44,288 bases of DNA from Bacilli bacterium (GCA_038321575.1 JBBQFD010000003.1:1-44288), one strand, 5' to 3'; counted from the first letter of the stretch, positions 1 to 42,605 are shown. A program made the numbers and translations. Notes: generated by a model not told the origin, from the sequence alone.

Positions 1-50
1 TAACATAGAATATAGATAGCTTATATGTTATACTATTACTAGGTGATAAT

Positions 51-14683: not shown

Positions 14684-15331
14684 ATGGTTGATAAAGTAAT
14701 AAAACTATTAAAAGATAACGCGGTTATGATCCCACGCCATTTAATAATGAATTATCGTAACCTTAAAATAACTGATTTAGAATTAGTAATTTTAATCTAT
14801 CTTATTAATGATGATAACAAAGGTTATAATCCTAAAAAAATAAGTATGGACCTTAATATTGATTTAAATGATGTTTTAGAAAGTATTAATAGCTTAACTA
14901 GTAAAGACATTTTAACTTTAGAAGTTCGTAAAGTAGGAACCATTCGTGAAGAGTTCTTATCATTAGATAACCTATATAATAAATTAGCGTTTATCATTGT
15001 TAATGATCAACCTAATAATGATTTAACCAAGAGTAATTTATTTGATGTTTTTGAAAAAGAATTTGGTCGTACCTTATCACCCATTGAATATGAATTAATC
15101 AATGGCTGGCAAGATGGTAAATTTAGTGAAGAACTAATTGGTTTAGCACTAAAAGAAGCGGTCTTTAACGGGGTCTTTAATCTTCGTTATATCGATAAGA
15201 TTCTTTATGAATGGGAGAAAAAAGGCATTAAAAATAAAGATGACCTTGAAAAAGAACGTACTAATTTCAAGAATAAGAAAATAGATAAAAAAGAACTATT
15301 TGATTATGATTGGTTAAATGAAAAAGAATAA
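14684..15331 (+). CDS. dnaD: Primosomal protein DnaD
   Basis: N-terminal winged helix; FEKEFGRTLSPIEYE, ALKEAV and YIDKILYEW motifs. Confidence 0.93.
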   Translation: MVDKVIKLLKDNAVMIPRHLIMNYRNLKITDLELVILIYLINDDNKGYNPKKISMDLNIDLNDVLESINSLTSKDILTLEVRKVGTIREEFLSLDNLYNKLAFIIVNDQPNNDLTKSNLFDVFEKEFGRTLSPIEYELINGWQDGKFSEELIGLALKEAVFNGVFNLRYIDKILYEWEKKGIKNKDDLEKERTNFKNKKIDKKELFDYDWLNEKE

Positions 15332-15333
15332 AG

Positions 15334-15361
15334 AAAAAAACTGTTTATAACAGTTTTTTTT
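15334..15361. terminator. Bidirectional terminator between dnaD and lemA
   Basis: AAAAAAACTGTT-TAT-AACAGTTTTTTT. Confidence 0.8.
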
Positions 15362-15905
15362 ATAGTTTAAAATCATTTTCTAATTCATCAGTCATATCTT
15401 TACCATCAAAATAAGTCTTTTGTTTATACTTACATGCTAGAGCAACCATATTAGATGGGAATATTCGAACATGACGATTATAATCAGTTATAACATCATT
15501 ATAATACTTTCTTAAAGCATATATTTCTGATTCTGATTCATTTAAACAAACACATATTTTATTAAAACCTTCAACTTGGCATAAAGCAGGACAAGTATCT
15601 TTATATTTATTAAATTCATTAATCGCATCGTAAAGTGATCTATCTAATTCAAAATTTGTTAACTTACGAGAACGTAATTTAATAATTATTTCTAATACTT
15701 CACCATCAACATCAGCATTACCATTAATTATTCCAATTGATCTATTTAATAAATCAAATCTTTTTCTGAGTGTGGAGTCAATATTAGCTTCCGCTTCGTT
15801 AACACGGATAATATAACTTTGAAACCTATTATATATTGAAATATAAGCAATAAGTAAAATACATACGATTACAACCATAAATAGCGAGTACATTATAATG
15901 TCCAT
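15360..15905 (-). CDS. LemA family protein
   Basis: N-terminal TM helix; ANIDSTLRKRFDL and RKYYNDVITDYN...FPSNMVA motifs. Start at ATG 15905 after AGGTGA. Confidence 0.88.
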   Translation of the reverse strand: MDIIMYSLFMVVIVCILLIAYISIYNRFQSYIIRVNEAEANIDSTLRKRFDLLNRSIGIINGNADVDGEVLEIIIKLRSRKLTNFELDRSLYDAINEFNKYKDTCPALCQVEGFNKICVCLNESESEIYALRKYYNDVITDYNRHVRIFPSNMVALACKYKQKTYFDGKDMTDELENDFKL

Positions 15906-16011
15906 TTTATCACCTGTAAACATTATAACAAAAACAAACCATATTATCAATTATATTGAAGATAATATTTATAAAAAAAATATATTATGTTATAATAAGT
16001 TAGGTGATAAA

Positions 16012-16593
16012 ATGGATTTAAAAATTGGAGTCTCAAACCGCCATGTACATTTAAAACAAGAAGACTTAAATGTCTTATTTGGTAATAACTTTACATTGGA
16101 ATTTGATCGTGATTTATCGCAAGCAGATGAGTTTGCTAGTAAGCAATTTCTTACTATTAAGACTCTTAAAGACGAAATCAAAAACGTTCGTGTTTTAGGT
16201 CCTATTCGTGATTATACCCAAATCGAAGTATCTAAAACTGATGCTTATAAACTTGGTATTAATCCACCAATTCGTAATTCAGAAGATCTAGTTGGTAGTT
16301 GTCCTATTACCTTGATTGGACCAGCCGGAACTCTTGAACTTAATGAAGGTTGTATTATTGCTACTCGTCATATTCATTTAAATCAAAGTGAAGCTGATGC
16401 TTTAGGACTTGCTAATATGGAAACTATTTCAGTTAGAGTTAATGGTATCAAAGGTGGTATTTTAGATAATGTTTATTTAAAAATAGATGAACACTATACT
16501 TTAGAGATGCATCTTGATACTGATGATGCTAATGCCCATCTTGTTAATAATGGGGATTTAGGGCTTATAATTAAAGACGAAAACAAGTTATAA
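16012..16593 (+). CDS. pduL: Phosphate propanoyltransferase PduL family (phosphotransacylase)
   Basis: GVSNRHVHL, VRVLGPIR, ATRHIH and MHLDTDDANA motifs. Start at ATG 16012 after AGGTGA. Confidence 0.92.
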   Translation: MDLKIGVSNRHVHLKQEDLNVLFGNNFTLEFDRDLSQADEFASKQFLTIKTLKDEIKNVRVLGPIRDYTQIEVSKTDAYKLGINPPIRNSEDLVGSCPITLIGPAGTLELNEGCIIATRHIHLNQSEADALGLANMETISVRVNGIKGGILDNVYLKIDEHYTLEMHLDTDDANAHLVNNGDLGLIIKDENKL

Positions 16594-32230: not shown

Positions 32231-32521
32231 TTGACGGAGCTATCAATATTAAAAAATCACCATCGTGAGTTATCTCATATTATGGAAGGTTATTTAAATA
32301 ATAATGAACAAGTTAAAGAAGCAATAAAGATTTATCAAGAATGTCGTATTGCGACTGATAATAGTGTTAGATGTAAATTAATTCAATTAGCAGAGTCTTA
32401 TATTGGAAAAGATCCCGAAGCTCGTCAAGCTTTAAAATGCTATAATCATATTATCTTTCTTGAAGAGAGAATTATGAGTCTACAAACTATAGAAAGTGAA
32501 GAATTAGTATGCACAAAGTAA
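32231..32521 (+). CDS. Hypothetical helical protein, overlapping the CDF gene start
   Basis: TGTTATATT extended -10 at 32200, SD GAGGAG, in-frame TTG at 32231. Confidence 0.65.
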   Translation: MTELSILKNHHRELSHIMEGYLNNNEQVKEAIKIYQECRIATDNSVRCKLIQLAESYIGKDPEARQALKCYNHIIFLEERIMSLQTIESEELVCTK

Positions 32522-33360
32522 CCAGAGTTATGGTCATAGTTTTACTTACTAATATGATTTTATCAATAATGCAAGTTATTGTTGGATTAATTGGTAGATC
32601 AAGTGCGGTTATTGCGGATGGGGTTCATACCTTAAGTGATATGACCACTGATGTTGTAGCTATTTTTGGTATAAGATTTTCTAATAAACGTGCTAATAAA
32701 GCCCACCCTTATGGATATGGGCAAGTTGAATATATAACTAGTATCTTTATTGGGGTCGTAGTTGTTATTGTTGGTTTATTCTTAATCAATAGTACCATGA
32801 ATAACGCCACCATGGTTCCTAGTATTTATGTTGTTATAGTAACCATCATTACGATTATTACTAAATATATATTATCTAATTATGTATTAGTTAAAGGTTA
32901 TCGTTGGGATAACTCAATCTTAATTGCTAGTGGTCGTGAAAGTCATGCTGATGTTATTAGTTCAATCTTTGTTCTAACATCATCATTACTAGCACAATTA
33001 ACCCGCTATAGTAATATGTTTATTTATTCTGATCGTGTTGCTGCTATTTTAGTAAGTATTTTCATTATTAGAGTTGGTTTTAAAATTGTTAGTGAAAACA
33101 TCAGTGTTATTATTGGTGAACAAGAAACGAATCAAGGTTTTCTTGATGAAGTTAAAGAAATAATCTTAAAAGAAAATAAAATTGAACATATCGATAATAT
33201 TGTTGCTTTAAAGTTTGGACCATACTACAAATTAAATTTAGAAGTCAAAATGGATGGTCATCTTACTTTAAAGGATGTTAATAAAGTTATGCTTAGAATT
33301 AAAAAACAATTAAAAAAAGATAAGAAAATAAGATATATAACGATTCAGGTTAATAATTAA
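32509..33360 (+). CDS. Cation diffusion facilitator (FieF-like) transporter, copy 1
   Basis: SSAVIADGVHTLSD and HPYGYGQVEY motifs, multiple TM helices and a C-terminal dimerisation domain. Confidence 0.92.
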   Translation: MHKVTRVMVIVLLTNMILSIMQVIVGLIGRSSAVIADGVHTLSDMTTDVVAIFGIRFSNKRANKAHPYGYGQVEYITSIFIGVVVVIVGLFLINSTMNNATMVPSIYVVIVTIITIITKYILSNYVLVKGYRWDNSILIASGRESHADVISSIFVLTSSLLAQLTRYSNMFIYSDRVAAILVSIFIIRVGFKIVSENISVIIGEQETNQGFLDEVKEIILKENKIEHIDNIVALKFGPYYKLNLEVKMDGHLTLKDVNKVMLRIKKQLKKDKKIRYITIQVNN

Positions 33361-33369
33361 AGGAGTCAT

Positions 33370-34230
33370 ATGAATAAAGTTACAAAAGTTATGTCAGTTA
33401 GTTTTGTGTCTAATGTATCGCTATCCCTTTTAAAAGTCATTATTGGAACTATTGGTCACTCAACAGCGATTGTCGCTGATGGTGCCCATTCTTTTAGTGA
33501 TCTTTTAACCGACCTAGTAGCAATTATTGGTAATAAAATGTCTTTAAAGCCAGCTGATAAGGAACACCCTTATGGCCATGGTCAATTAGAATATCTAACC
33601 TCACTAGCAATTGGAACAGCTGTCCTTTTTATTGCTTTCACTATTATTACAAGTGCTGTTTTTAAAACATCAGTTATTCCTAGTTCATTTGTTATGTGGG
33701 TAAGTTTATTTACCATTATTACTAAATACATCCTTGCTAAATATATTTCTATTCGAGGTATTGAATATAACAATGCCATTTTAAAGGCTAGTGGTCGTGA
33801 AAGCATGGGCGATGTTATTAGTTCAATCTTCGTCCTTATATCAGCCGTTATGATGCAATTAACCCATTATGTTAGTTGGTTTATCTATGCTGATGCGATT
33901 ACTACTATTATTGTTGGTCTATTTATCTTTAGAATTGGTTTCTTAATCATAAAAGATAATATTAGTACCATTATTGAAGAACGAGAATTAGATCCTATCC
34001 TTAATCAACAAGTTACTAATATTATCTTAAATAATTCTAATGTTAAAAAGATTGATAGTTTAATCATAATTAAATCAGGTCCATACTACAAACTAATGAT
34101 TGAATTACAAATGAGTGGTAATGGTACTTTAAATCATATTCATAAGAATATTGATTTAATTGAAAAAAATCTAAAAAAAGCTAATCGTAAATACAAATAT
34201 ATAATGATTCACGTTAGTCCAGCAGAATAG
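33370..34230 (+). CDS. Cation diffusion facilitator (FieF-like) transporter, copy 2
   Basis: STAIVADGAHSFSD, HPYGHGQLEY and IMIHVSP motifs. Confidence 0.93.
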   Translation: MNKVTKVMSVSFVSNVSLSLLKVIIGTIGHSTAIVADGAHSFSDLLTDLVAIIGNKMSLKPADKEHPYGHGQLEYLTSLAIGTAVLFIAFTIITSAVFKTSVIPSSFVMWVSLFTIITKYILAKYISIRGIEYNNAILKASGRESMGDVISSIFVLISAVMMQLTHYVSWFIYADAITTIIVGLFIFRIGFLIIKDNISTIIEERELDPILNQQVTNIILNNSNVKKIDSLIIIKSGPYYKLMIELQMSGNGTLNHIHKNIDLIEKNLKKANRKYKYIMIHVSPAE

Positions 34231-34289
34231 AGGAGGCCATTAAAAAGGCCGCACGTTTAATTGTAGCTTTAATAGTAAGTGATCCCATT

Positions 34290-34487
34290 ATGAGCACCAT
34301 TTGTGATGCTAAACTTAATAGGGTCTGCCCTCGTAACTTTGATAATTATGCTCTCCCTGATCGTAATTTTAATCGTGCTACCAGGAAAGACTTATTACCA
34401 TATCTAATAAAACAATCTACTTACTATAAAGAACAAATGGGGACTATTTATAAACCAGGTCTCATGAAAACTTTAAAACATAAATAA
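34290..34487 (+). CDS. Small hypothetical protein or 5'-truncated remnant
   Basis: 65-aa ORF whose frame is open back to 34218; stop lies directly before the next promoter. Confidence 0.45.
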   Translation: MSTICDAKLNRVCPRNFDNYALPDRNFNRATRKDLLPYLIKQSTYYKEQMGTIYKPGLMKTLKHK

Positions 34488-34489
34488 AA

Positions 34490-34517
34490 TTGACTTATCT
34501 ACTTTTTTAGATATAAT
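34490..34517 (+). promoter_or_regulatory. Sigma-A-like promoter with 16-bp spacer
   Basis: TTGACT(34490-95)-16 nt-TATAAT(34512-17). Confidence 0.75.
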
Positions 34518-34535
34518 ATTGGTGAAAGAGGATTT

Positions 34536-35150
34536 ATGAAAAAAAGTAAATATATTGTTAAAACAACCAAGCACAAACTATTATCTAATATATCACTTCA
34601 AGAAATATATGATGAAAATCATCTTTTAGTTATTCCTGAAGAAGATATAGAAATAGATGATGTTATCGAGCCCATTGTAGTTTCAATTTCTGCATTAGTG
34701 GTATCTGATTTAGTCCCAAATACCCCAATTGTAGTAATAAACGAGTTAGATTATTATGGTTTAAGTGGTAACAAAATGAATAATATTGACGAGGTAGATA
34801 CTTTTATGACAGCTACTCATAATACCAAACCAACACCAAAGAGCCCATCAATTAAGACTACAATATTATATTCAAAAGAGTATGATAAGCACCTAAGAGT
34901 TACTTTTATCGTTAATGCTGATAAATCAATTGACTACTTATCAGTTAGTGAAATCAATAACCCTGTAATTGCCGATTTACCATTAAATGGAGTTAGTAGT
35001 AAAGAACCATTACAATCTTTATTTGAAAAACTATTTAAAAACCAAAAAACTCCGGCTGAACTTAATGTTGATCACAATCGTGAAGCAGCAGCGGAAGCTG
35101 GTAAAGATTATGAACCATATAATGGTCACTCTAAAATATTAAAAAGATAA
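34536..35150 (+). CDS. Hypothetical protein (ORFan)
   Basis: 204 aa, SD GAGGA, own promoter. Confidence 0.8.
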   Translation: MKKSKYIVKTTKHKLLSNISLQEIYDENHLLVIPEEDIEIDDVIEPIVVSISALVVSDLVPNTPIVVINELDYYGLSGNKMNNIDEVDTFMTATHNTKPTPKSPSIKTTILYSKEYDKHLRVTFIVNADKSIDYLSVSEINNPVIADLPLNGVSSKEPLQSLFEKLFKNQKTPAELNVDHNREAAAEAGKDYEPYNGHSKILKR

Positions 35151-35154
35151 TAGC

Positions 35155-35198
35155 TAAAGACATTAGTGTTGACTAATGTCTTTATTAGTATATAATAT
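35155..35198 (+). repeat. Palindromic terminator/promoter cassette, copy 1
   Basis: TAAAGACATTAGT-GTTG-ACTAATGTCTTTA 13-bp inverted repeat containing TTGACT, followed by TATAAT; 30 nt identical to copy 2. Confidence 0.9.
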
Positions 35199-35215
35199 TT
35201 AAAAAAGAGGTTTTT

Positions 35216-35767
35216 ATGGAACAAGATTATAATGCTAAATTAAATTATTATATTAATAATAATCTTCGTAAAACGAAATTACTAGTTTATTTAAAAGAGT
35301 TAGCGCAAACTAACCCCAAGAATATTCTTTTAATTAATAGTTTTATTACTTTAATTGAAAAACGTAATGCTGATTTTTTAAAAATCAGCAATCAAGAGAA
35401 ACAAAAGATTTTAAGAGAATTAAATACTCATCATTTTGGTGATAACAACATTGTTAAACGTAGCGAAGTTTTAGTAACTAAAACTCCGGTTAGTCGAATA
35501 ACCTCAACCTTAACTTATCACGATAATGATGCGGGCACTATTTTAGATTTATCTTTTAGTGAATTTACTACACCAATTCAAATTAAGGTTAATAAGTCAC
35601 AAATTAATAAAAGAAAATTAACGCTTGATGAAGTCTACCAAAAGATTAAAAGCACTCCTAATTGGAAACAACTATTAGATGATATTTTTTATTCATCAAT
35701 TAATAGTGATCAATCAGATTATAATGCTGATGATATTAGGGAATCAGTCAAATCTTTTCAAAAATAA
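35216..35767 (+). CDS. Hypothetical protein (ORFan) flanked by direct repeats
   Basis: 183 aa, SD GAGGT. Confidence 0.8.
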   Translation: MEQDYNAKLNYYINNNLRKTKLLVYLKELAQTNPKNILLINSFITLIEKRNADFLKISNQEKQKILRELNTHHFGDNNIVKRSEVLVTKTPVSRITSTLTYHDNDAGTILDLSFSEFTTPIQIKVNKSQINKRKLTLDEVYQKIKSTPNWKQLLDDIFYSSINSDQSDYNADDIRESVKSFQK

Positions 35768-35772
35768 TATAT

Positions 35773-35816
35773 AAGACATTAGTTTATTGACTAATGTCTT
35801 TATTAGTATATAATAT
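35773..35816 (+). repeat. Palindromic terminator/promoter cassette, copy 2
   Basis: AAGACATTAGT-TTATTG-ACTAATGTCTT; 35787-35816 is identical to 35169-35198. Confidence 0.9.
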
Positions 35817-35835
35817 ATTATCAAGGAGTTGACTT

Positions 35836-36663
35836 ATGACGATAGATTTAATTACTAAAGTTGTTAAGAAACTTGATCCCCAAGGCGAACTTAATAAGTT
35901 CTTACAATCCCTATCTAAAAATGCTTTAATGGAAACCAGAGCATCTATAATTGAACATAGTATGGAAGTAAAACATTTTATCTGTGTTATGAATTATATT
36001 GGTAATACTAATCATATTATTGAATATAGTGGATTTTTAAGTGAACTTAAAAGTTCGATTACAACATCTGAATATAAACAAATGATTCAAAGTCAAAGAA
36101 AACAAGTTCTATCCATTCTCATTAAAACCGACTCGTATTTATCAATGTTATTTAATGAAGAAGTAATTGAATACTTACAACTATCTACTGCTATTTTATG
36201 TAATCTCCGCAATTCATCAATTTTAACTAATGAAGAAAGAATTGAAAAGCTTGATTTAGAAAATATCTTTTTACTTTTAAGTCGAGAAATCTGTCCTCAT
36301 CCTTTATGGATTAATTTAAATAATCCTAATGCTGCTTATGACTTCCCTGATCAAACTTGTAAATGTGCGCTATGTGGTGATGCTATAGTATCCTCTGATA
36401 TAGCTGATTTTAATTATGGGTCTCATATTGATAAAAGTGGTCGTCAAAGAGTCTATGGTGGGCCGATAATTGGTATTCCTGAGGATCTTGTTATTGCTTA
36501 TAAACGTGCTGAGGAAGAAAGAATTATTCCAATAGAATTTAATAAATTAATTCTTAAGAATAAAGATATTCCACTACATATCTTAGCTGAACAATTTATT
36601 CAAGGAAAAGAATCATTAAACTGTTCAAATGATAAACAAAAGTCTAATCGTATTAATAAGTAA
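35836..36663 (+). CDS. Hypothetical protein with a C-x-H...C-x2-C-G putative zinc finger
   Basis: ICPH-x21-CALCG; SD AAGGAG. Confidence 0.8.
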   Translation: MTIDLITKVVKKLDPQGELNKFLQSLSKNALMETRASIIEHSMEVKHFICVMNYIGNTNHIIEYSGFLSELKSSITTSEYKQMIQSQRKQVLSILIKTDSYLSMLFNEEVIEYLQLSTAILCNLRNSSILTNEERIEKLDLENIFLLLSREICPHPLWINLNNPNAAYDFPDQTCKCALCGDAIVSSDIADFNYGSHIDKSGRQRVYGGPIIGIPEDLVIAYKRAEEERIIPIEFNKLILKNKDIPLHILAEQFIQGKESLNCSNDKQKSNRINK

Positions 36664-36673
36664 GGAGAATATT

Positions 36674-37330
36674 ATGGAAGATAAAACATTATATAAAGCA
36701 ACTTGTGAACAAGAAATAACTAAGTTAAAAAAACAAATCGAAACATGCAAAAAGAATATTGATTATGATAAACATCCTTTTAATCATCCCTTAACCCAAA
36801 GATTACTTGTTCTTAAAACCGAATTAAGTAGCATGTTTATCATTAGACAAAGTTACTGTGATCATGGTTTGTTATTAACTAATGATCAAGATAAAGATTG
36901 TTTTTATCAATGCATTGAATGTGGTAAGATAATTACCGAAAAAGAAACTAATACTGAAGTTATTGATATTAAAGAATTAAAGATAAATTCATCTATTAAT
37001 ATCGCTCCGGTAATCCTTTATCTCCATGAACAATACCTAAAGACCTATAATACTAATCAAGGTTTTAAAGAATATATTATTAATAACTTTAAAAACAGGG
37101 CTATTAAAAAGATGTCTGATGACACTAAAAGATATATTGATGATATTGTTGATATCTTAATTAGTTATAATGAACCTGCTGTTGAATTAGAGAAATATTT
37201 ATTTAATAAAGAAACAATTGCTTTAGGTCTCAATAAAAACATGACTTTTGATGTTGATTCTTTTCGTGATCTTATCTATCAACAACTAGATGAATATCAT
37301 CAAGAAAAGGATATAAAACATGGAAAATAA
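36674..37330 (+). CDS. Hypothetical protein with a C-x-H...C-x2-C-G putative zinc finger
   Basis: YCDH-x15-CIECG; start at ATG 36674 after AAGGAG. Confidence 0.8.
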   Translation: MEDKTLYKATCEQEITKLKKQIETCKKNIDYDKHPFNHPLTQRLLVLKTELSSMFIIRQSYCDHGLLLTNDQDKDCFYQCIECGKIITEKETNTEVIDIKELKINSSINIAPVILYLHEQYLKTYNTNQGFKEYIINNFKNRAIKKMSDDTKRYIDDIVDILISYNEPAVELEKYLFNKETIALGLNKNMTFDVDSFRDLIYQQLDEYHQEKDIKHGK

Positions 37331-38039
37331 AGATACTTTAGATTTAAAAATAAAAGAATTAAAAGATAAACTTATTTTATCAGAAGAACGTGCTAATAAA
37401 CATGGTAAAAATCTTAGAAGTTTTCATGTTAAAGCACTTGTTTATCAACTTAATGAATTAAGTCAACTTCAAATGGCAAGACAAGCAATATGTAAGCATA
37501 ATATGATTTTAAATAATAATCTAGATTTTCCTTTCCAACACCACTGTTTAGAATGTGGTTTTACCATTTATCCTATCACTAATGCTATTCATCAATCAGA
37601 TCTTGCACTAGGAATGGAAGTTATTTTGATGAGTGATTTAATTAAGATTAATCCTGATAAATTAGTGACGATTATTACTAATGCTTATCAATCTTTTAAT
37701 GGTACTAAAAAAGAGTTTAAAGACTTTGTTTTAAATACTTATAAAAATGAAGAAGTAATAGCACCATCAGTTGATGTTATGAATATTGTTTATAATTATA
37801 TTAAGGTCTTAAGTAGATTCTCTAATCCTACTTATGAATTAAATGATTTTTTAAAAGGTAAAAAAACTATTACTTTAAGAAAACATCCAGAATTAATCAT
37901 TAGTTCTGATATTTTAAAAAAACTCATTCATCAACATATGCCTGAGGTATATGTTGATGCCCAAACTAAAGATGAGATTGATAATGAACCAAGAAGATAT
38001 CTGAAAGTTAAGGTTTTAACTAATGATAAAAACCGTTGA
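37320..38039 (+). CDS. Hypothetical protein with a C-x-H...C-x2-C-G putative zinc finger; paralog of the preceding gene
   Basis: ICKH-x15-CLECG; colinear similarity to 36674-37330. Confidence 0.8.
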   Translation: MENKDTLDLKIKELKDKLILSEERANKHGKNLRSFHVKALVYQLNELSQLQMARQAICKHNMILNNNLDFPFQHHCLECGFTIYPITNAIHQSDLALGMEVILMSDLIKINPDKLVTIITNAYQSFNGTKKEFKDFVLNTYKNEEVIAPSVDVMNIVYNYIKVLSRFSNPTYELNDFLKGKKTITLRKHPELIISSDILKKLIHQHMPEVYVDAQTKDEIDNEPRRYLKVKVLTNDKNR

Positions 38040-38139
38040 GTATTTAAAATTAGAAAAATCAAGATATATATTTATTAAGCACCAAAAAACTAGTTGGAAG
38101 AAACTAATTAAGATTTATGAACAAAATCTTGATAAATAA
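38023..38139 (+). CDS. Possible 38-aa basic small protein
   Basis: MIKTVEYLKLEKSRYIFIKHQKTSWKKLIKIYEQNLDK; AAGGT upstream; overlaps the previous stop. Confidence 0.3.
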   Translation: MIKTVEYLKLEKSRYIFIKHQKTSWKKLIKIYEQNLDK

Positions 38140-38157: not shown

Positions 38158-38169
38158 ATAATATATAAT

Positions 38170-38360
38170 AAAAATGTAGATGGAAAATAGTAATAAGTTT
38201 AATTATTTATAGAAAGTTAGTGGTTAATGGAAACTAATAATAATAACTTATGAATCTAATCCAGAATGAAGTGGGAACACCTCCGGTAATGCCGTTATGC
38301 TAATTAAGACTATTTAGGATGGTACCGCAGGAATGCTCCTATATTGATAGTCTTTTTTTT
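38170..38360 (+). ncRNA. T-box leader (Ser) upstream of serS
   Basis: Stem I arms TGGA...ATAAGTT / AACTTAT...TCCA; AGTA/GAA specifier loop with TCT (Ser) at 38255-57; AG-box AGAAAG; CCGTTA at 38292; antiterminator AGGA-TGGTACC-GCA(GGAA)TGC-TCCT. Confidence 0.9.
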
Positions 38361-38379: not shown

Positions 38380-39666
38380 ATGATAGATATTAATTTAGTA
38401 AGAGATAATCCCGAACTAGTAAGGAATAATATTAAAAAGAAATTTCAAGATCATAAATTACCCCTTATTGATGAGGTTTTAGCCTTAGATTTAAAGAATA
38501 GAGATTTAAAACTTAAAGGGGATAATTTAAGAGCTTTAAAAAACACTAAATCAGCCCAAATAGGGCTTCTTATGCGTGAGGGTAAACAAGTAGAAGCAGA
38601 TAGTATCAAAGAGGCTGTAAATGGCTATAATAATGAATTATTAGCAGTTGAAAAAGAAGAAGAAGAACTACAACTACAAATAAAAAAAATAATGATGAGT
38701 ATTCCTAATATCATAGCTGACTCTGTACCACTTGGTAAAAGTGATTTAGATAATGTTGAAGTAGCAGTCTATGGTGATAAGACTAAATATGATTATGAAG
38801 TCCCATATCACTTAGATATCTTAGAAAAATTAAATGGTATCGACTTAGATAGTGCAAGACGAGTATCGGGTAATGGGTTTTATTACTTAATGGGTGATAT
38901 TGCGAGACTTCATTCAGCTGTATTAACCTACGCTAGAGACTTTATGATTGACAAAGGATTTACATACGTTATACCACCATTCATGATTAGGGGGGACGTA
39001 GTAACTGGGGTTATGAGCTTTGAAGAAATGGATAATATGATGTATAAGATTGAAGGGGAAGACCTTTATTTAATTGGTACTTCTGAACATTCTATGATTG
39101 GTAAATTTAAAGACCAAATCTTAGATCAATCAGAACTTCCTTATACCATGACATCATACTCACCATGCTTCCGTAAAGAAAAAGGAGCTCATGGAATTGA
39201 AGAACGTGGTATCTACCGCATTCATCAATTTGAAAAACAAGAAATGATTGTTGTTTGTGATCCCAAAGACTCCGAAGCTTGGTTTGAAAAAATGTATAAT
39301 TACACCATTGAGTTATTTAGATCAATGGACGTTCCAGTAAGAGCCTTAGAGTGTTGCTCTGGCGATCTAGCTGATTTAAAATATAAATCAATTGATGTTG
39401 AAGCATGGAGTCCAAGACAACAAAAATACTTTGAAGTAGGTTCTTGCTCCAACTTAACTGATGCTCAAGCTAGAAGACTAGGTATTAGAGTAAAAAGTGG
39501 TAATGATAAATACTTCGCCCACACTCTAAACAATACCGTTGTCGCACCACCTAGAATGCTTATAGCCATCTTAGAGAATCATCTAAACCAAGATGGCTCT
39601 ATTAACATCCCCAAGATCTTACAACCATATATGGGTAATAAGACTAAGATAGATATAAAGAAATAG
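38380..39666 (+). CDS. serS: Serine--tRNA ligase
   Basis: N-terminal coiled coil; LIGTSEH, CFRKEKG..G..R.HQFEK, EVGSCSN and HTLNNT motifs. Start at ATG 38380 after AGGAG. Confidence 0.98.
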   Translation: MIDINLVRDNPELVRNNIKKKFQDHKLPLIDEVLALDLKNRDLKLKGDNLRALKNTKSAQIGLLMREGKQVEADSIKEAVNGYNNELLAVEKEEEELQLQIKKIMMSIPNIIADSVPLGKSDLDNVEVAVYGDKTKYDYEVPYHLDILEKLNGIDLDSARRVSGNGFYYLMGDIARLHSAVLTYARDFMIDKGFTYVIPPFMIRGDVVTGVMSFEEMDNMMYKIEGEDLYLIGTSEHSMIGKFKDQILDQSELPYTMTSYSPCFRKEKGAHGIEERGIYRIHQFEKQEMIVVCDPKDSEAWFEKMYNYTIELFRSMDVPVRALECCSGDLADLKYKSIDVEAWSPRQQKYFEVGSCSNLTDAQARRLGIRVKSGNDKYFAHTLNNTVVAPPRMLIAILENHLNQDGSINIPKILQPYMGNKTKIDIKK

Positions 39667-39741: not shown

Positions 39742-40239
39742 TTGAAACAAAAGTATAGGTTGGCCTTTATTTTTATTGTTATTTCATTTACTTTATTTAC
39801 CAATAATGTAAATGCACAAAGGGGATGTTGTTCGTGGCATGGCGGAGTAGCGGGCTGTTCAAGTAACGGACGACAAATTTGTAATGATGGTACCTTGAGT
39901 CCAAGTTGTATATGTACCCCAATAAATTCATATATTTATGGTTGCACTAGTTCAAGCGCTATAAATTATAATTCAAAAGCCAACAAGGATAACGGAACTT
40001 GCAGATATTATATTTACGGTTGTACTGATAAAAACGCTACGAATTATAATTCAAATGCTAATACTAATGATGATTCCTGTAAATATTTAAACAACGAAGT
40101 TGTAAATTCTGGAAATGATGATGCAATAGACAACGAACCTTCTAATAATGCAGTTTGGATAGAATTAGCATTATTTGTAGGATTTATAATTAGCACCAAA
40201 TACATGTTTAAAAATACCAGAGGAGAGAAAAAGCCCTAA
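39742..40239 (+). CDS. Cys-rich surface protein (signal peptide, GCCSWHGGV domain, two GCT..A.NY...AN..D..C repeats, C-terminal TM)
   Basis: Motifs read directly from the translation; TTG start after AGGAG. Confidence 0.75.
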   Translation: MKQKYRLAFIFIVISFTLFTNNVNAQRGCCSWHGGVAGCSSNGRQICNDGTLSPSCICTPINSYIYGCTSSSAINYNSKANKDNGTCRYYIYGCTDKNATNYNSNANTNDDSCKYLNNEVVNSGNDDAIDNEPSNNAVWIELALFVGFIISTKYMFKNTRGEKKP

Positions 40240-40408: not shown

Positions 40409-40729
40409 ATGGAAAAAGCAAAAAGGGAAATTATAAAATTTGCTAAAGATAGGGATTGGGATCAATTCCATACTCCAGAAAACCTAGCAAAATCGATTTC
40501 AATTGAGGCAGGAGAACTTTTAGAATGCTTTCAATGGAATAGTAAATTTGATAAAGAAGAAGTTGCCGATGAGCTTGCTGATGTAGTCAATTATTGTATT
40601 TTGCTTGGTAATAAGCTAAATATTGATTTAGAAGAAATTGTGTTATCTAAAATTAAGAAAAATGAGTTAAAATATCCTATTGATAAATCAAAAGGTAAGA
40701 GTAATAAATATGACAAGTTAGGAGATTAA
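40409..40729 (+). CDS. MazG-like nucleotide pyrophosphohydrolase
   Basis: FAKDRDWDQFHTPENLAKSISIEAGELLECFQW, ELADV and KYP motifs. Confidence 0.93.
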   Translation: MEKAKREIIKFAKDRDWDQFHTPENLAKSISIEAGELLECFQWNSKFDKEEVADELADVVNYCILLGNKLNIDLEEIVLSKIKKNELKYPIDKSKGKSNKYDKLGD

Positions 40730-40730
40730 C

Positions 40731-42605
40731 ATGTTAGTATATGAAGGTATTAAAAGTAGTTTTTTATCTGATGTAATTGAAGATACAATTGTCGAAAGAA
40801 TCCTTGAAAAGTATGTTCCGATTTTTGGCAATAGTAACATATCACAAACAAGAGCATTTAAGAATTCTATGGAATATATGTATAAAGTACTTTCTGACGA
40901 TGAAATACCTGATAATTCTGGGATCGCAATCGAATTCAATATACCATCTACTTCAAAAAGAGTAGATTTTATTGTGTCTGGATTTGATCAATCTAAAAAT
41001 AGCTCAGTAATTATTATTGAATTGAAGCAATGGGACGAATGTTCTAAAGTAGATGGTAAGGACGGACTTGTTAAAACATATGTGGGTGGTAATTTCAGGG
41101 AAGTAACACATCCATCTTATCAAGCATGGTCATATGCAAGTCTAATTCAAGATTTTAATCAATCAGTACAAGAAGAAAGTATAGGATTATATCCATGTGC
41201 GTATCTTCATAACTATAAAATAACTGAAAATGATCCAATAATTGATAATATTTATCAAGAATATATAGAAGCCGCTCCTGTATTTGGTATGGGTGATGTT
41301 TTAAAACTAAGAGAATTTATTAAAAAATACGTTAAGTACGGTGATAATAAAGAACTTTTATACAAAATTGAAAATGGTAAGATTAGACCATCAAAAAGAT
41401 TACAAGATGCCTTATCGAGTATGTTAAAAGGGAATCAAGAATTTTTGATGATTGATGAACAGAAAGTTATATATGAAACCGCTATTGAATTATCATTGAA
41501 ATCATACGAAGATAACAAAAAAAGAGTATTGGTTATTAATGGCGGACCAGGGACTGGCAAGTCAGTATTGGCTATTAACTTATTAGTATATTTAACAAAT
41601 AAAAATATGGTAGTCAATTATGTTACTAAAAATGCTGCGCCGAGAAATGTTTTTTACGATAAATTAAAAGGAAATTTTAGTGCTAGTTATATTAAAAATT
41701 TATTTAAAGGGTCAGGAGTTTACACAGATGCAAAAACAAACACTTTTGATACTTTAGTGGTTGATGAAGCACATCGTTTAAATGCTAAATCTGGTATGTT
41801 TAAAAATCTAGGCGAAAACCAAGTCAAAGAAATAATAAATGCTGCCAAATGTTCAATATTCTTTTTAGATGAAAATCAAAAGGTGACCATGTCTGATATT
41901 GGTAGCGCAGATGTTATTAAAGCATATGCAAAACAAGCGAATGCTGAATTACACTTTGTTGAACTTGAATCACAATTTAGATGTAACGGATCAGATGGTT
42001 ATTTATCATGGTTAGACAATATACTAGAAATAAAAGAAACGGCCAATTATACTTTTGATTTTGATTACGATTTTAAAACCGTTGATTCTCCAGAAAAATT
42101 AAAAAATATGATTTTTGAAAAAAATAAAATTAATAATAAATCTAGATTAGTGGCTGGATATTGTTGGAATTGGATATCTGCGGGCAAAAATAACTCTGAA
42201 ATTCACGATATTGTTATACCTGAATACTCTTTTGAAATGAGTTGGAATTTAGGTAATAGTAGCACATGGGCTATTGATGAAAACTCGGTAAATGAAGTTG
42301 GATGTATCCATACTTGTCAAGGATTAGAATTTGATTATGTCGGAGTAATTATAGGTGAAGACATTAGATATGAGAATGGTCATATAATTACTGATTTTAC
42401 AAAGAGAGCAAAAACAGATAAATCTTTGTTTGGAATAGTTGCAAAATCTAGACAAAACAAAAATGAAGCTGATAAGCAGGCCGATCAAATAATAAAGAAC
42501 ACATACAGAACTTTAATGACTAGAGGAATGAAGGGGTGTTATATATATTGTGTTGATAAGAAGTTACAGGAATATTTTATTAGATCGTTGATAAAACAAA
42601 AATAA
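40731..42605 (+). CDS. DUF2075 (Schlafen group 3-like) helicase with N-terminal PD-(D/E)xK-type nuclease
   Basis: EF..P....RVD...IIELKQW nuclease pattern; Walker A GGPGTGKS; VVDEAH; HTCQGLEFDYVGV; YRTLMTRG. Confidence 0.9.
   Translation: MLVYEGIKSSFLSDVIEDTIVERILEKYVPIFGNSNISQTRAFKNSMEYMYKVLSDDEIPDNSGIAIEFNIPSTSKRVDFIVSGFDQSKNSSVIIIELKQWDECSKVDGKDGLVKTYVGGNFREVTHPSYQAWSYASLIQDFNQSVQEESIGLYPCAYLHNYKITENDPIIDNIYQEYIEAAPVFGMGDVLKLREFIKKYVKYGDNKELLYKIENGKIRPSKRLQDALSSMLKGNQEFLMIDEQKVIYETAIELSLKSYEDNKKRVLVINGGPGTGKSVLAINLLVYLTNKNMVVNYVTKNAAPRNVFYDKLKGNFSASYIKNLFKGSGVYTDAKTNTFDTLVVDEAHRLNAKSGMFKNLGENQVKEIINAAKCSIFFLDENQKVTMSDIGSADVIKAYAKQANAELHFVELESQFRCNGSDGYLSWLDNILEIKETANYTFDFDYDFKTVDSPEKLKNMIFEKNKINNKSRLVAGYCWNWISAGKNNSEIHDIVIPEYSFEMSWNLGNSSTWAIDENSVNEVGCIHTCQGLEFDYVGVIIGEDIRYENGHIITDFTKRAKTDKSLFGIVAKSRQNKNEADKQADQIIKNTYRTLMTRGMKGCYIYCVDKKLQEYFIRSLIKQK

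Follow-up and report, generated by a model that had tools for sequence, protein, structure and literature searches.

The 44,288-nucleotide stretch of DNA analysed here (the window; GCA_038321575.1, JBBQFD010000003.1) spans in full contig C3, one of 41 contigs in a 697,708-base metagenome-assembled genome (MAG) of a Bacilli bacterium, referred to below as G000. Between two tandem genes for cation diffusion facilitators (CDF), which carry Cation_efflux and ZT_dimer domains, and a T-box leader followed by serS, the window contains an array of five genes, g1 to g5 (Table 1). The original prediction, made from the sequence of the window, had described these as five consecutive ORFans of 183-275 amino acids (aa) and as a candidate undescribed system of possibly exported proteins. 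The five genes and their place stand, and g1 and g2 are still orphans, but g3, g4 and g5 appear to be highly diverged members of a fast-evolving family of small zinc-ribbon proteins.

Table 1. Features of the g1-g5 array and its flanks, with positions in the window
Feature	Position	Strand	Description
Two tandem CDF genes	32509-33360, 33370-34230	+	Pfam Cation_efflux E 4e-34 / 5e-37; ZT_dimer
Promoter P1, TTGACT-16-TATAAT	34490-34517	+	18 nt ahead of g1 start codon; 11/12 consensus positions
g1	34536-35150	+	204 aa; acidic orphan (pI 5.4); residues 43-61 hydrophobic (borderline)
Hairpin T1	35155-35184	+	13-bp stem, 4-nt loop, then TTAGTATA; RNA folding free energy (dG) -15.7 kcal/mol, z -4.76, 0/200 shuffles as stable
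Promoter P2, TTGACT-16-TATAAT	35169-35196	+	28 nt identical to P3
g2	35216-35767	+	183 aa; orphan; basic, pI 9.2
Hairpin T2	35773-35800	+	12-bp stem, T1-type arms; dG -15.6 kcal/mol, z -4.90, 0/200 shuffles as stable
Promoter P3, TTGACT-16-TATAAT	35787-35814	+	Ahead of the g3-g4-g5 unit
g3	35836-36663	+	275 aa; motif CPHPLW...CKCALCG; longer N-terminal helical region; residues ~141-246 match the zinc-ribbon family
g4	36674-37330	+	218 aa (233 aa from alternative ATG 36629); motif CDH...CIECG; g5 paralog
g5	37320-38039	+	239 aa; motif CKH...CLECG; g4 paralog
serS T-box leader	38168-38343	+	RF00230, 73.3 bits, E 3.8e-15, under the gathering score of 93
serS	38380-39666	+	Pfam

Based on codon statistics, the codon style of the array is host-like, as had been judged by eye: among 651 crude open reading frames (ORFs) of the genome, the codon log-likelihoods of g1-g5 lie between the 26th and 88th percentiles and their frame discrimination between the 19th and 77th, so the five were taken as real genes. 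The GC content is 25% in g2, g4 and g5 as compared to 29% for the contig. A gap of 10 nt with an AAGGAG-like site separates g3 from g4, and g4 and g5 overlap by 11 nt, the g5 start lying before the g4 stop. No signal peptide is visible in the N-termini of the five proteins. The prediction that transmembrane helices are also absent held for g2-g5, whereas the hydrophobic stretch of g1 is a borderline case (19-residue Kyte-Doolittle mean 1.87, with E, D and P inside it). No family of Pfam, PHROG, PADLOC or NCBIfam was significant for g1-g5; the best PHROG match had an E of 0.0054 over a 35-residue stretch of g2 (others at least 0.045), and PADLOC-DB 2.0, a library from 2023 that newer defence systems lie outside, gave 0 families at E<=0.1. 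A tblastn search with g3 and g5 against 50,697 phage records gave no match, and no plasmid-type signal was seen in these searches. The flanks had been described as free of phage genes, which is right for the part examined (~29-43 kb of the window): neither there nor in g1-g5 was an integrase, mobility or phage family found. In pairwise comparison within the array, only g4 and g5 were similar to each other.

The shared CxH/CxxCG motif of g3, g4 and g5 was confirmed by a regular-expression scan of all genome ORFs of at least 60 aa, in which C-x-H...C-x-x-C-G occurred in four proteins, the three of the array and one on contig C14. The neighbours g4 and g5 arose as paralogs in tandem (25% identity; blastp E 3e-17; z 20.9 by Smith-Waterman), which bears out the expected diversification by duplication. 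Direct searches led little further: g5 found only itself among 5.8 billion proteins; a g4+g5 profile searched against 1.84 billion representatives returned g4, g5 and one repetitive 1043-aa match (E 6.7e-6); and the best ESM Atlas score of g5, 0.81, was under lead level. Entry to the family came through synteny, since in the relative G061 the polA-CDF-serS site holds a 133-aa protein with the motif CEHPSW...CLICG. This protein has two relatives in a large protein set, and their profile (A2) aligned with residues 150-246 of g3 over 90 columns (hhalign E 2.1e-5, probability 77%). When 300 genomes from this bacterial family were searched with a profile, more members of 120-210 aa emerged, all with an N-terminal coiled-coil region followed by C-x-H-P-x-W...C-x-C-L-x-C-G. 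In a search with a leave-one-out hidden Markov model (HMM), built from nine members with g3 omitted, g3 came first among 1609 genome ORFs (E 5.8e-6). For g4, a member of 121 aa in the genome G307 gave a phmmer E of 9.5e-7 among 956 ORFs and 29% identity over 103 aa by blastp (E 3e-8), and the g4+g5 profile aligned with the A8 family over 30 columns (hhalign E 2.1e-5, probability 77%). Only g4 (E 3e-17) and that joint profile (E 2.1e-5) link g5 to the family. In an alignment of 23 sequences, g3, g4 and g5 included, the four motif positions C, H, C and C are invariant, and hhalign places the motifs in register. These comparisons give reasonable support for g3 and g4 as family members, and g5 would belong through g4.

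The fourth copy in the genome, P0009 (190 aa, CNH...CPKCG, basic tail), lies at C14:9189-9758 (locus L052 3687-4259, - strand) between a tRNA gene with an exact TTGACT-16-TATAAT promoter and a 128-aa gene, and has its own TTTACT-17-TATAAT promoter. The 128-aa gene is followed by a 180-aa gene, which from its sequence we take to be signal peptidase I. P0009 weakly matched Cys_rich_KTR (PF14205) over residues 67-106 (E 0.0035, 17.6 bits vs a cut-off of 25.5). Its weak relatives led to a branch of unnamed, Pfam-less proteins of ~200 aa, here called A5, which comprises at least 380 proteins at E<=1e-3; none of the 120 listed has a Pfam domain or a name. The A8 family and a 44-sequence A5 alignment are homologous in the region of the second helix and zinc ribbon (hhalign probability 96.7%, E 3.7e-10). 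In a literature search on RF39-type Bacilli, the term 'zinc ribbon' was absent among the matches listed.

The AlphaFold2 (AF2) model of an A5 representative, built from the 44-sequence alignment, reached a pLDDT of 90.2 and a pTM of 0.77, and consists of a hairpin of two helices (residues 3-25 and 28-61), a beta-hairpin of two strands (65-74 and 79-86) that carries the C-x-H and C-x-x-C motifs, and further helices. C62, H64, C86 and C89 are invariant in A5, a pattern that would fit one structural zinc site. Among the Foldseek and VIA rows listed, no solved or viral structure resembled the whole model (best BFVD match E 0.14), and when A5 and A8 were searched by sequence against solved structures, nothing fell under E 0.048. 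Modelled as a homodimer, the A5 representative scored 0.62 as compared to 0.00 for the best of three controls; 20 of 30 solved pairs of one chain attain the mark for this score, as does 1 of 23 single chains (rough counts, own alignment used). The runs agreed in 100% of contacts, the partner pLDDT was at least 81, and the interface (residues 3-57) is formed entirely by the helical hairpins, which are predicted to pack as a four-helix bundle. This model supports, and does not show, dimerisation of the A5 family protein. The tip of the hairpin is acidic in the A5 consensus (L-x-E-x-E) and not acidic in g4 and g5.

The three TTGACT-16-TATAAT sites of the original prediction are present. P1-P3 each match 11 of 12 consensus positions and lie 18-21 nt upstream of the start codons of g1, g2 and g3, so that three transcription units are plausible. 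The exact promoter occurs at seven sites in the 697,708-base genome and the wider TTGACN-16..18-TATAAT at 27. Three of the seven exact sites fall within 1.3 kb, a striking density, although two of them stem from one duplication. The other four precede a tRNA gene (C14:9039), a WG-repeat protein (Pfam E 1e-40), an RsgI-like protein (E 3.9e-25) and an unannotated 216-aa gene; the 27 sites of the wider class precede assorted other genes. Because a tRNA gene and unrelated genes carry the same site, TTGACT-16-TATAAT is the general sigma-A consensus and not an orphan-specific class, and the idea of a promoter class peculiar to this repertoire falls away.

The duplicated palindromic cassette is real, with copies at 35155-35196 and 35773-35814 that are identical over the 28 nt from the -35 to the -10 box. 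Ahead of both P2 and P3 stands an inverted repeat with arms AGACATTAGT and ACTAATGTCT, the 3' arm of which overlaps the -35 hexamer. When up to three mismatches were allowed, the cassette was found in two copies in G000 and in none of 300 related genomes. In the DNA, 4 nt separate the arms at T1 and 6 nt at T2, where the fold pairs one extra base and keeps the 4-nt loop. Beyond the full stem the RNA would continue with UUAGUAUA and beyond a 10-bp stem with UUUAUUAG, and the U-run is weak. We infer that the cassette is the terminator of the preceding gene joined to the promoter of the next. The palindrome was also considered as a dimeric DNA operator and judged less likely, because its arm spacing differs by 2 nt between the copies, a change which an RNA hairpin tolerates better.

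An exported or injected effector repertoire of a host- or cell-associated bacterium would be marked by such a promoter class and by basic tails. All five proteins do end in K or R with three to four K/R in the last ten residues, and the excess is only mild (p=0.029 for the summed count by resampling): the genome mean is 2.0, 32% of ORFs have at least three, serS has four, and K or R is the last residue of 37% of proteins. Since family members in other genomes also have basic C-termini, the tail may be a family trait. It has no feature that would set it apart as a signal for export, although the same tails can be counted in favour of effectors, as can the relatives, which by their titles are mostly gut MAGs. 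The secretion-type ATPases that were to be looked for were found in part, as T2SSE and AAA_10/TraG-like ATPases on contig C6; neither is linked to the array, and no EssC-type or multi-domain FtsK/EssC ATPase was seen beside one ordinary FtsK. Contig C6 carries a 595-aa AAA_10/TraG P-loop ATPase at 14694-16481 and, at its end, a 571-aa (3'-open) HerA/DUF87 ATPase, which may be conjugation, type IV secretion system-like or defence parts. As no signal peptide, secretion-system link or effector homology was found, and a zinc ribbon with a helical-bundle dimer resembles intracellular modules, we regard export as very unlikely and have dropped that claim.

g1 and g2 themselves are orphan genes by the searches run. 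Direct searches of 200-300 genomes from this bacterial family with g1, g2 and also g3 gave no match that was convincing, g1 had no usable match in ESM Atlas, and the similarity of g1 to g2, and of each to a 156-aa neighbour of the G061 member, was not above that of shuffles. The description of the array as lineage-specific is in keeping with these results and with the lone self-match of g5. The missing homologs would also fit decaying or chance reading frames, in particular for g1 and g2. Against that, the two score within the bulk of the genome ORFs (percentiles of frame discrimination and codon use 56 and 40 for g1, 29 and 80 for g2), frames of 183-204 codons would rarely arise by chance at 29% GC, and a consensus promoter and an AGAGG-type ribosome-binding site precede each gene and a terminator-like hairpin follows it, so that we give this explanation hardly any weight. 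A recurrent weak likeness of g1 to the trigger factor Tig of relatives (blastp 39% over 49 aa) was followed and rejected, because the alignment with the Tig profile was not significant (hhalign probability 7.9%, E 0.0043). As a separate observation, no trigger factor gene was detectable in G000: Trigger_N (PF05697) had no match, and the best tblastn hit of a relative's Tig (E 0.056) falls inside g1 (34887-35033). The tig gene is present in four of the five relatives tested (those with the most similar SerS), and as the assembly is ~95% complete its loss from G000 is not proven.

A census with the 23-sequence profile found a match at E<=1e-3 in 47 of 300 related genomes, 37 with one and ten with two, and four in G000, whose own four sequences are in the profile, so that its four are counted by construction and diverged copies elsewhere may be missed. 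Adjacent pairs of members occur in G175, G197, G149, G076 and G241. In the locus of G175 (L085, C1, 1342-2466), two members stand tail to tail with their stops ~25 nt apart beside a class I W/Y aminoacyl-tRNA synthetase gene; members also lie beside serS in G000 and G061, and this adjacency to aminoacyl-tRNA synthetase genes may be coincidence. In GTDB genomes, 75 loci were found, for the most part in MAGs with 'uncultured Bacilli/Tenericutes' titles, and the titles of carriers include 'uncultured Bacilli bacterium', 'uncultured Tenericutes', 'Clostridium sp. CAG:451', 'Candidatus Onthousia' and 'Candidatus Scybalousia'. The relatives presumably belong to the order RF39. Elsewhere the neighbours of members are NUDIX, class I W/Y aminoacyl-tRNA synthetase, rpsB/RNase J, dnaE and ftsH genes, and no conserved partner gene was found at the relatives' loci examined. 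The candidate undescribed system is therefore not supported: no conserved co-occurrence of the five genes was seen, and the relatives of g3-g5 stand alone.

This patchy spread, together with the adjacent pairs, the divergence of the paralogs to 25% identity and the variable locus, is what conflict-driven genes would also produce, and in the main rival explanation the zinc-ribbon family, perhaps with g1 and g2, would act in phage defence, counter-defence or another arms race. A MazG-like gene (E 4e-20) and an SLFN-g3/DUF2075-type helicase gene (E 4e-104), which overlap by ~1 base at 40409-42605, 2.4 kb downstream, and may be a defence-related pair, can be added on its side. The searches do not bear it out, as there was no PADLOC match at E<=0.1, no PHROG match under E 0.005, no phage tblastn match of g3 or g5 and no BFVD match (best E 0.14), and members are found singly among housekeeping genes and lack partner genes. 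On balance, a role in conflict appears unlikely.

The polA-(CDF)-serS interval is a variable spot in the relatives. In four of 13 relative loci, polA is found upstream of serS at a distance of up to 10 kb: the order in G001 is polA-CDF-serS and nothing is inserted, in G044 serS follows polA directly, the interval of G053 contains four unrelated genes, and G061 has polA, CDF, the 133-aa CEHPxW...CLICG member, the 156-aa gene on the other strand and serS. The empty places in G001 and G044 would suit a mobile element, a prophage remnant or its cargo inserted between CDF and serS, as would the orphan content, the consensus promoters, the putative per-gene terminators and the lower GC of g2, g4 and g5 (25% vs 29%), and phage early regions or morons typically combine strong promoters with small orphan genes. 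Codon use is host-like all the same, no integrase, mobility or phage family was seen in the flanks examined, no notable direct repeats flank the array, no phage matches were found, and because G061 has a member at this very site, a long-resident gene is favoured over a recent insertion. A mobile origin is therefore improbable in our judgement. The same site invites a role in zinc handling, in which ribbon genes beside a zinc-type CDF exporter would buffer, sense or deliver zinc, for a member follows Cation_efflux genes in both G000, where these carry ZT_dimer domains, and G061, where it begins 36 nt past the CDF stop codon. Yet members elsewhere have the other neighbours named above, G000 and G061 are related and their shared adjacency is probably one historical event, and one CHCC site per ~200 aa is a structural site rather than a buffer; zinc handling has, like export, very little in its favour.

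We lean, by a little, towards g3-g5 as intracellular, dimeric zinc-ribbon adaptor or regulator proteins that diversify in place. The array itself is lineage-specific, 3.9 kb long, and occupies the variable spot of an otherwise conserved polA-(CDF)-serS neighbourhood, and g3, g4 and g5 appear to be highly diverged members of a fast-evolving, patchily distributed family of small cytoplasmic proteins that often stand in adjacent pairs. Their build would be an N-terminal helical hairpin, a C-x-H / C-x-x-C-G zinc ribbon with CHCC ligands and a helical C-terminal part. In G000 the family appears to have expanded by the tandem duplication of g4/g5, with g3 at the same position as the member in G061 and the fourth copy on C14. 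Near-perfect sigma-A promoters with very short leaders would drive g1, g2 and g3-g4-g5 each, and the putative terminator-promoter module would have been copied once in the array; the strong hairpin after g1 and after g2 carries the next -35 box. By the same reading, g3-g5 would bind zinc, dimerise, be transcribed highly and constitutively and act on a nucleic-acid or protein target.

Several results weigh against this reading. The leave-one-out HMM recovered neither g4 (E 7.8) nor g5, the g4+g5 profile was not significant against A5 (E 0.014), and the link of g4 and g5 to the family consists of one pairwise match and a 30-column profile match. The confident model and the dimer prediction concern a relative's protein rather than g3-g5 themselves; the AF2 model of g5 itself, from a two-sequence alignment, had a pLDDT of 48.7 and was not usable for a fold search, and at this low confidence its helices (4-27, 35-55) and strands (65-67, 70-75) follow the order of elements in the A5 model. 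The four copies of G000 carry the bias of the census described above, and a consensus terminator scan listed hairpins on the - strand only, the + strand T-run after the full stem being weak. A bolder version goes further, to an undescribed, rapidly diversifying dimeric helical-hairpin/zinc-ribbon family apparently confined to RF39-like reduced Bacilli. Its confidently predicted fold would have no neighbour among solved or viral structures, its targets, as for coiled-coil factors such as DksA/Gre, may be the machinery of transcription or translation or else invading nucleic acid, and the smallest sampled genome would have amplified it to an array under consensus promoters, with two newly born genes, g1 and g2. 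We consider this version, taken as a whole, doubtful.

The genome around the array is small and nearly complete: the assembly has a completeness of 95.5% and a contamination of 0.06%, its contigs are mostly ~29% GC, and genomes of the same family are mostly 0.8-1.5 Mb in size as compared to ~0.7 Mb for G000. A genome of the same genus for comparison of the array was not found, g5 matching only itself. The DNA of the locus was found in one sequencing run only, labelled as a sediment metagenome (share 0.94) and probably from the source sample; two further runs from the source sample were near-empty for the locus, and no RNA run carrying it was among the sequencing runs listed. The T-box was the sole RNA family found in the intergenic stretches by Rfam, the window has no tRNA, and a TTGATA-17-TATAAT promoter stands at 38129 ahead of the serS T-box. 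Between g5 and this promoter, 38040-38128 has no convincing terminator (fold z +0.31), and the g3-g5 transcript may therefore extend into the serS leader. Upstream of the array, the 259-nt spacer after the CDF genes (34231-34489) contains a 65-aa ORF (34290-34487) with no family or Rfam match; a decayed g3-like copy was rejected for it, since the best score by tblastn, 18.1 bits, is the same as the 95th percentile for 200 shuffled sequences. Downstream of serS, a 165-aa ORF (39742-40239) has a signal-peptide-like N-terminus and is Cys-rich, with repeated 'YGCT..NA.NYNS.AN' units; its codon scores are atypical (1st percentile), and its N-terminus weakly matches phrog_6000 (E 1.5e-6). On contig C14 (locus L052 5353-7926, - strand), an 857-aa ORF of near-identical ~95-aa repeats (TFTDPG...YYSPTGADGTWVGALGNEVRTN...) is probably a surface repeat protein.

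The placement of three former orphans in a family of several hundred unnamed proteins, with a confident model and a predicted dimer, gives a target for further work, and the A5 family may merit a family description of its own. Genomes of ~0.7-1 Mb have little spare room, and a four-copy, strongly promoted family is therefore likely to matter to the cell. The array may also illustrate, in nature, how a putative terminator-promoter module is copied together with new genes where the interval between core genes varies. If the function is an ordinary one, such as that of a structural adaptor, the gain is a modest one in annotation.

As compared to the unnamed A5/A8 family of ~200-aa proteins from reduced Bacilli MAGs, g3-g5 probably have their parts in the same order (helical hairpin, C-x-H strand, C-x-x-C-G knuckle, helical tail), and they share the invariant C, H, C and C, the basic C-termini and the tendency to adjacent pairs. 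They differ in that the N-terminal region of g3 is ~140 aa longer, the C-terminal half of g4 and g5 is longer and unrelated, their identity to any member is no more than 20-29%, and G000 has three in a row and a fourth elsewhere where the other carriers have one or two hits. DksA/TraR (PF01258) and the Gre factors are likewise small proteins that combine a two-helix coiled-coil hairpin with a zinc module. The A5 family has CHCC ligands rather than the C4 arrangement (C-x2-C...C-x2-C) of DksA/TraR, with CxxCG as the second knuckle, g3-g5 have no match to that Pfam family at E<=1, no DksA or Gre structure was among the Foldseek or VIA rows listed, and the A5 hairpin is predicted to be a dimer interface. 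Cys_rich_KTR of Firmicutes is a short two-knuckle zinc ribbon that P0009 matches weakly and g3-g5 not at all, and its model of 54 positions covers the ribbon only, with neither helical hairpin nor tail. Mollicutes-like reduced genomes are known for multigene families peculiar to one lineage and for variable islets among their core genes, and the array shares with these the orphan or fast-evolving paralogs, the tandem duplication and the insertion between conserved housekeeping genes of a very small genome. It differs from them in that its family members are probably cytoplasmic zinc-ribbon proteins instead of surface lipoproteins or adhesins, and no repeat-mediated phase-variation signals were seen.

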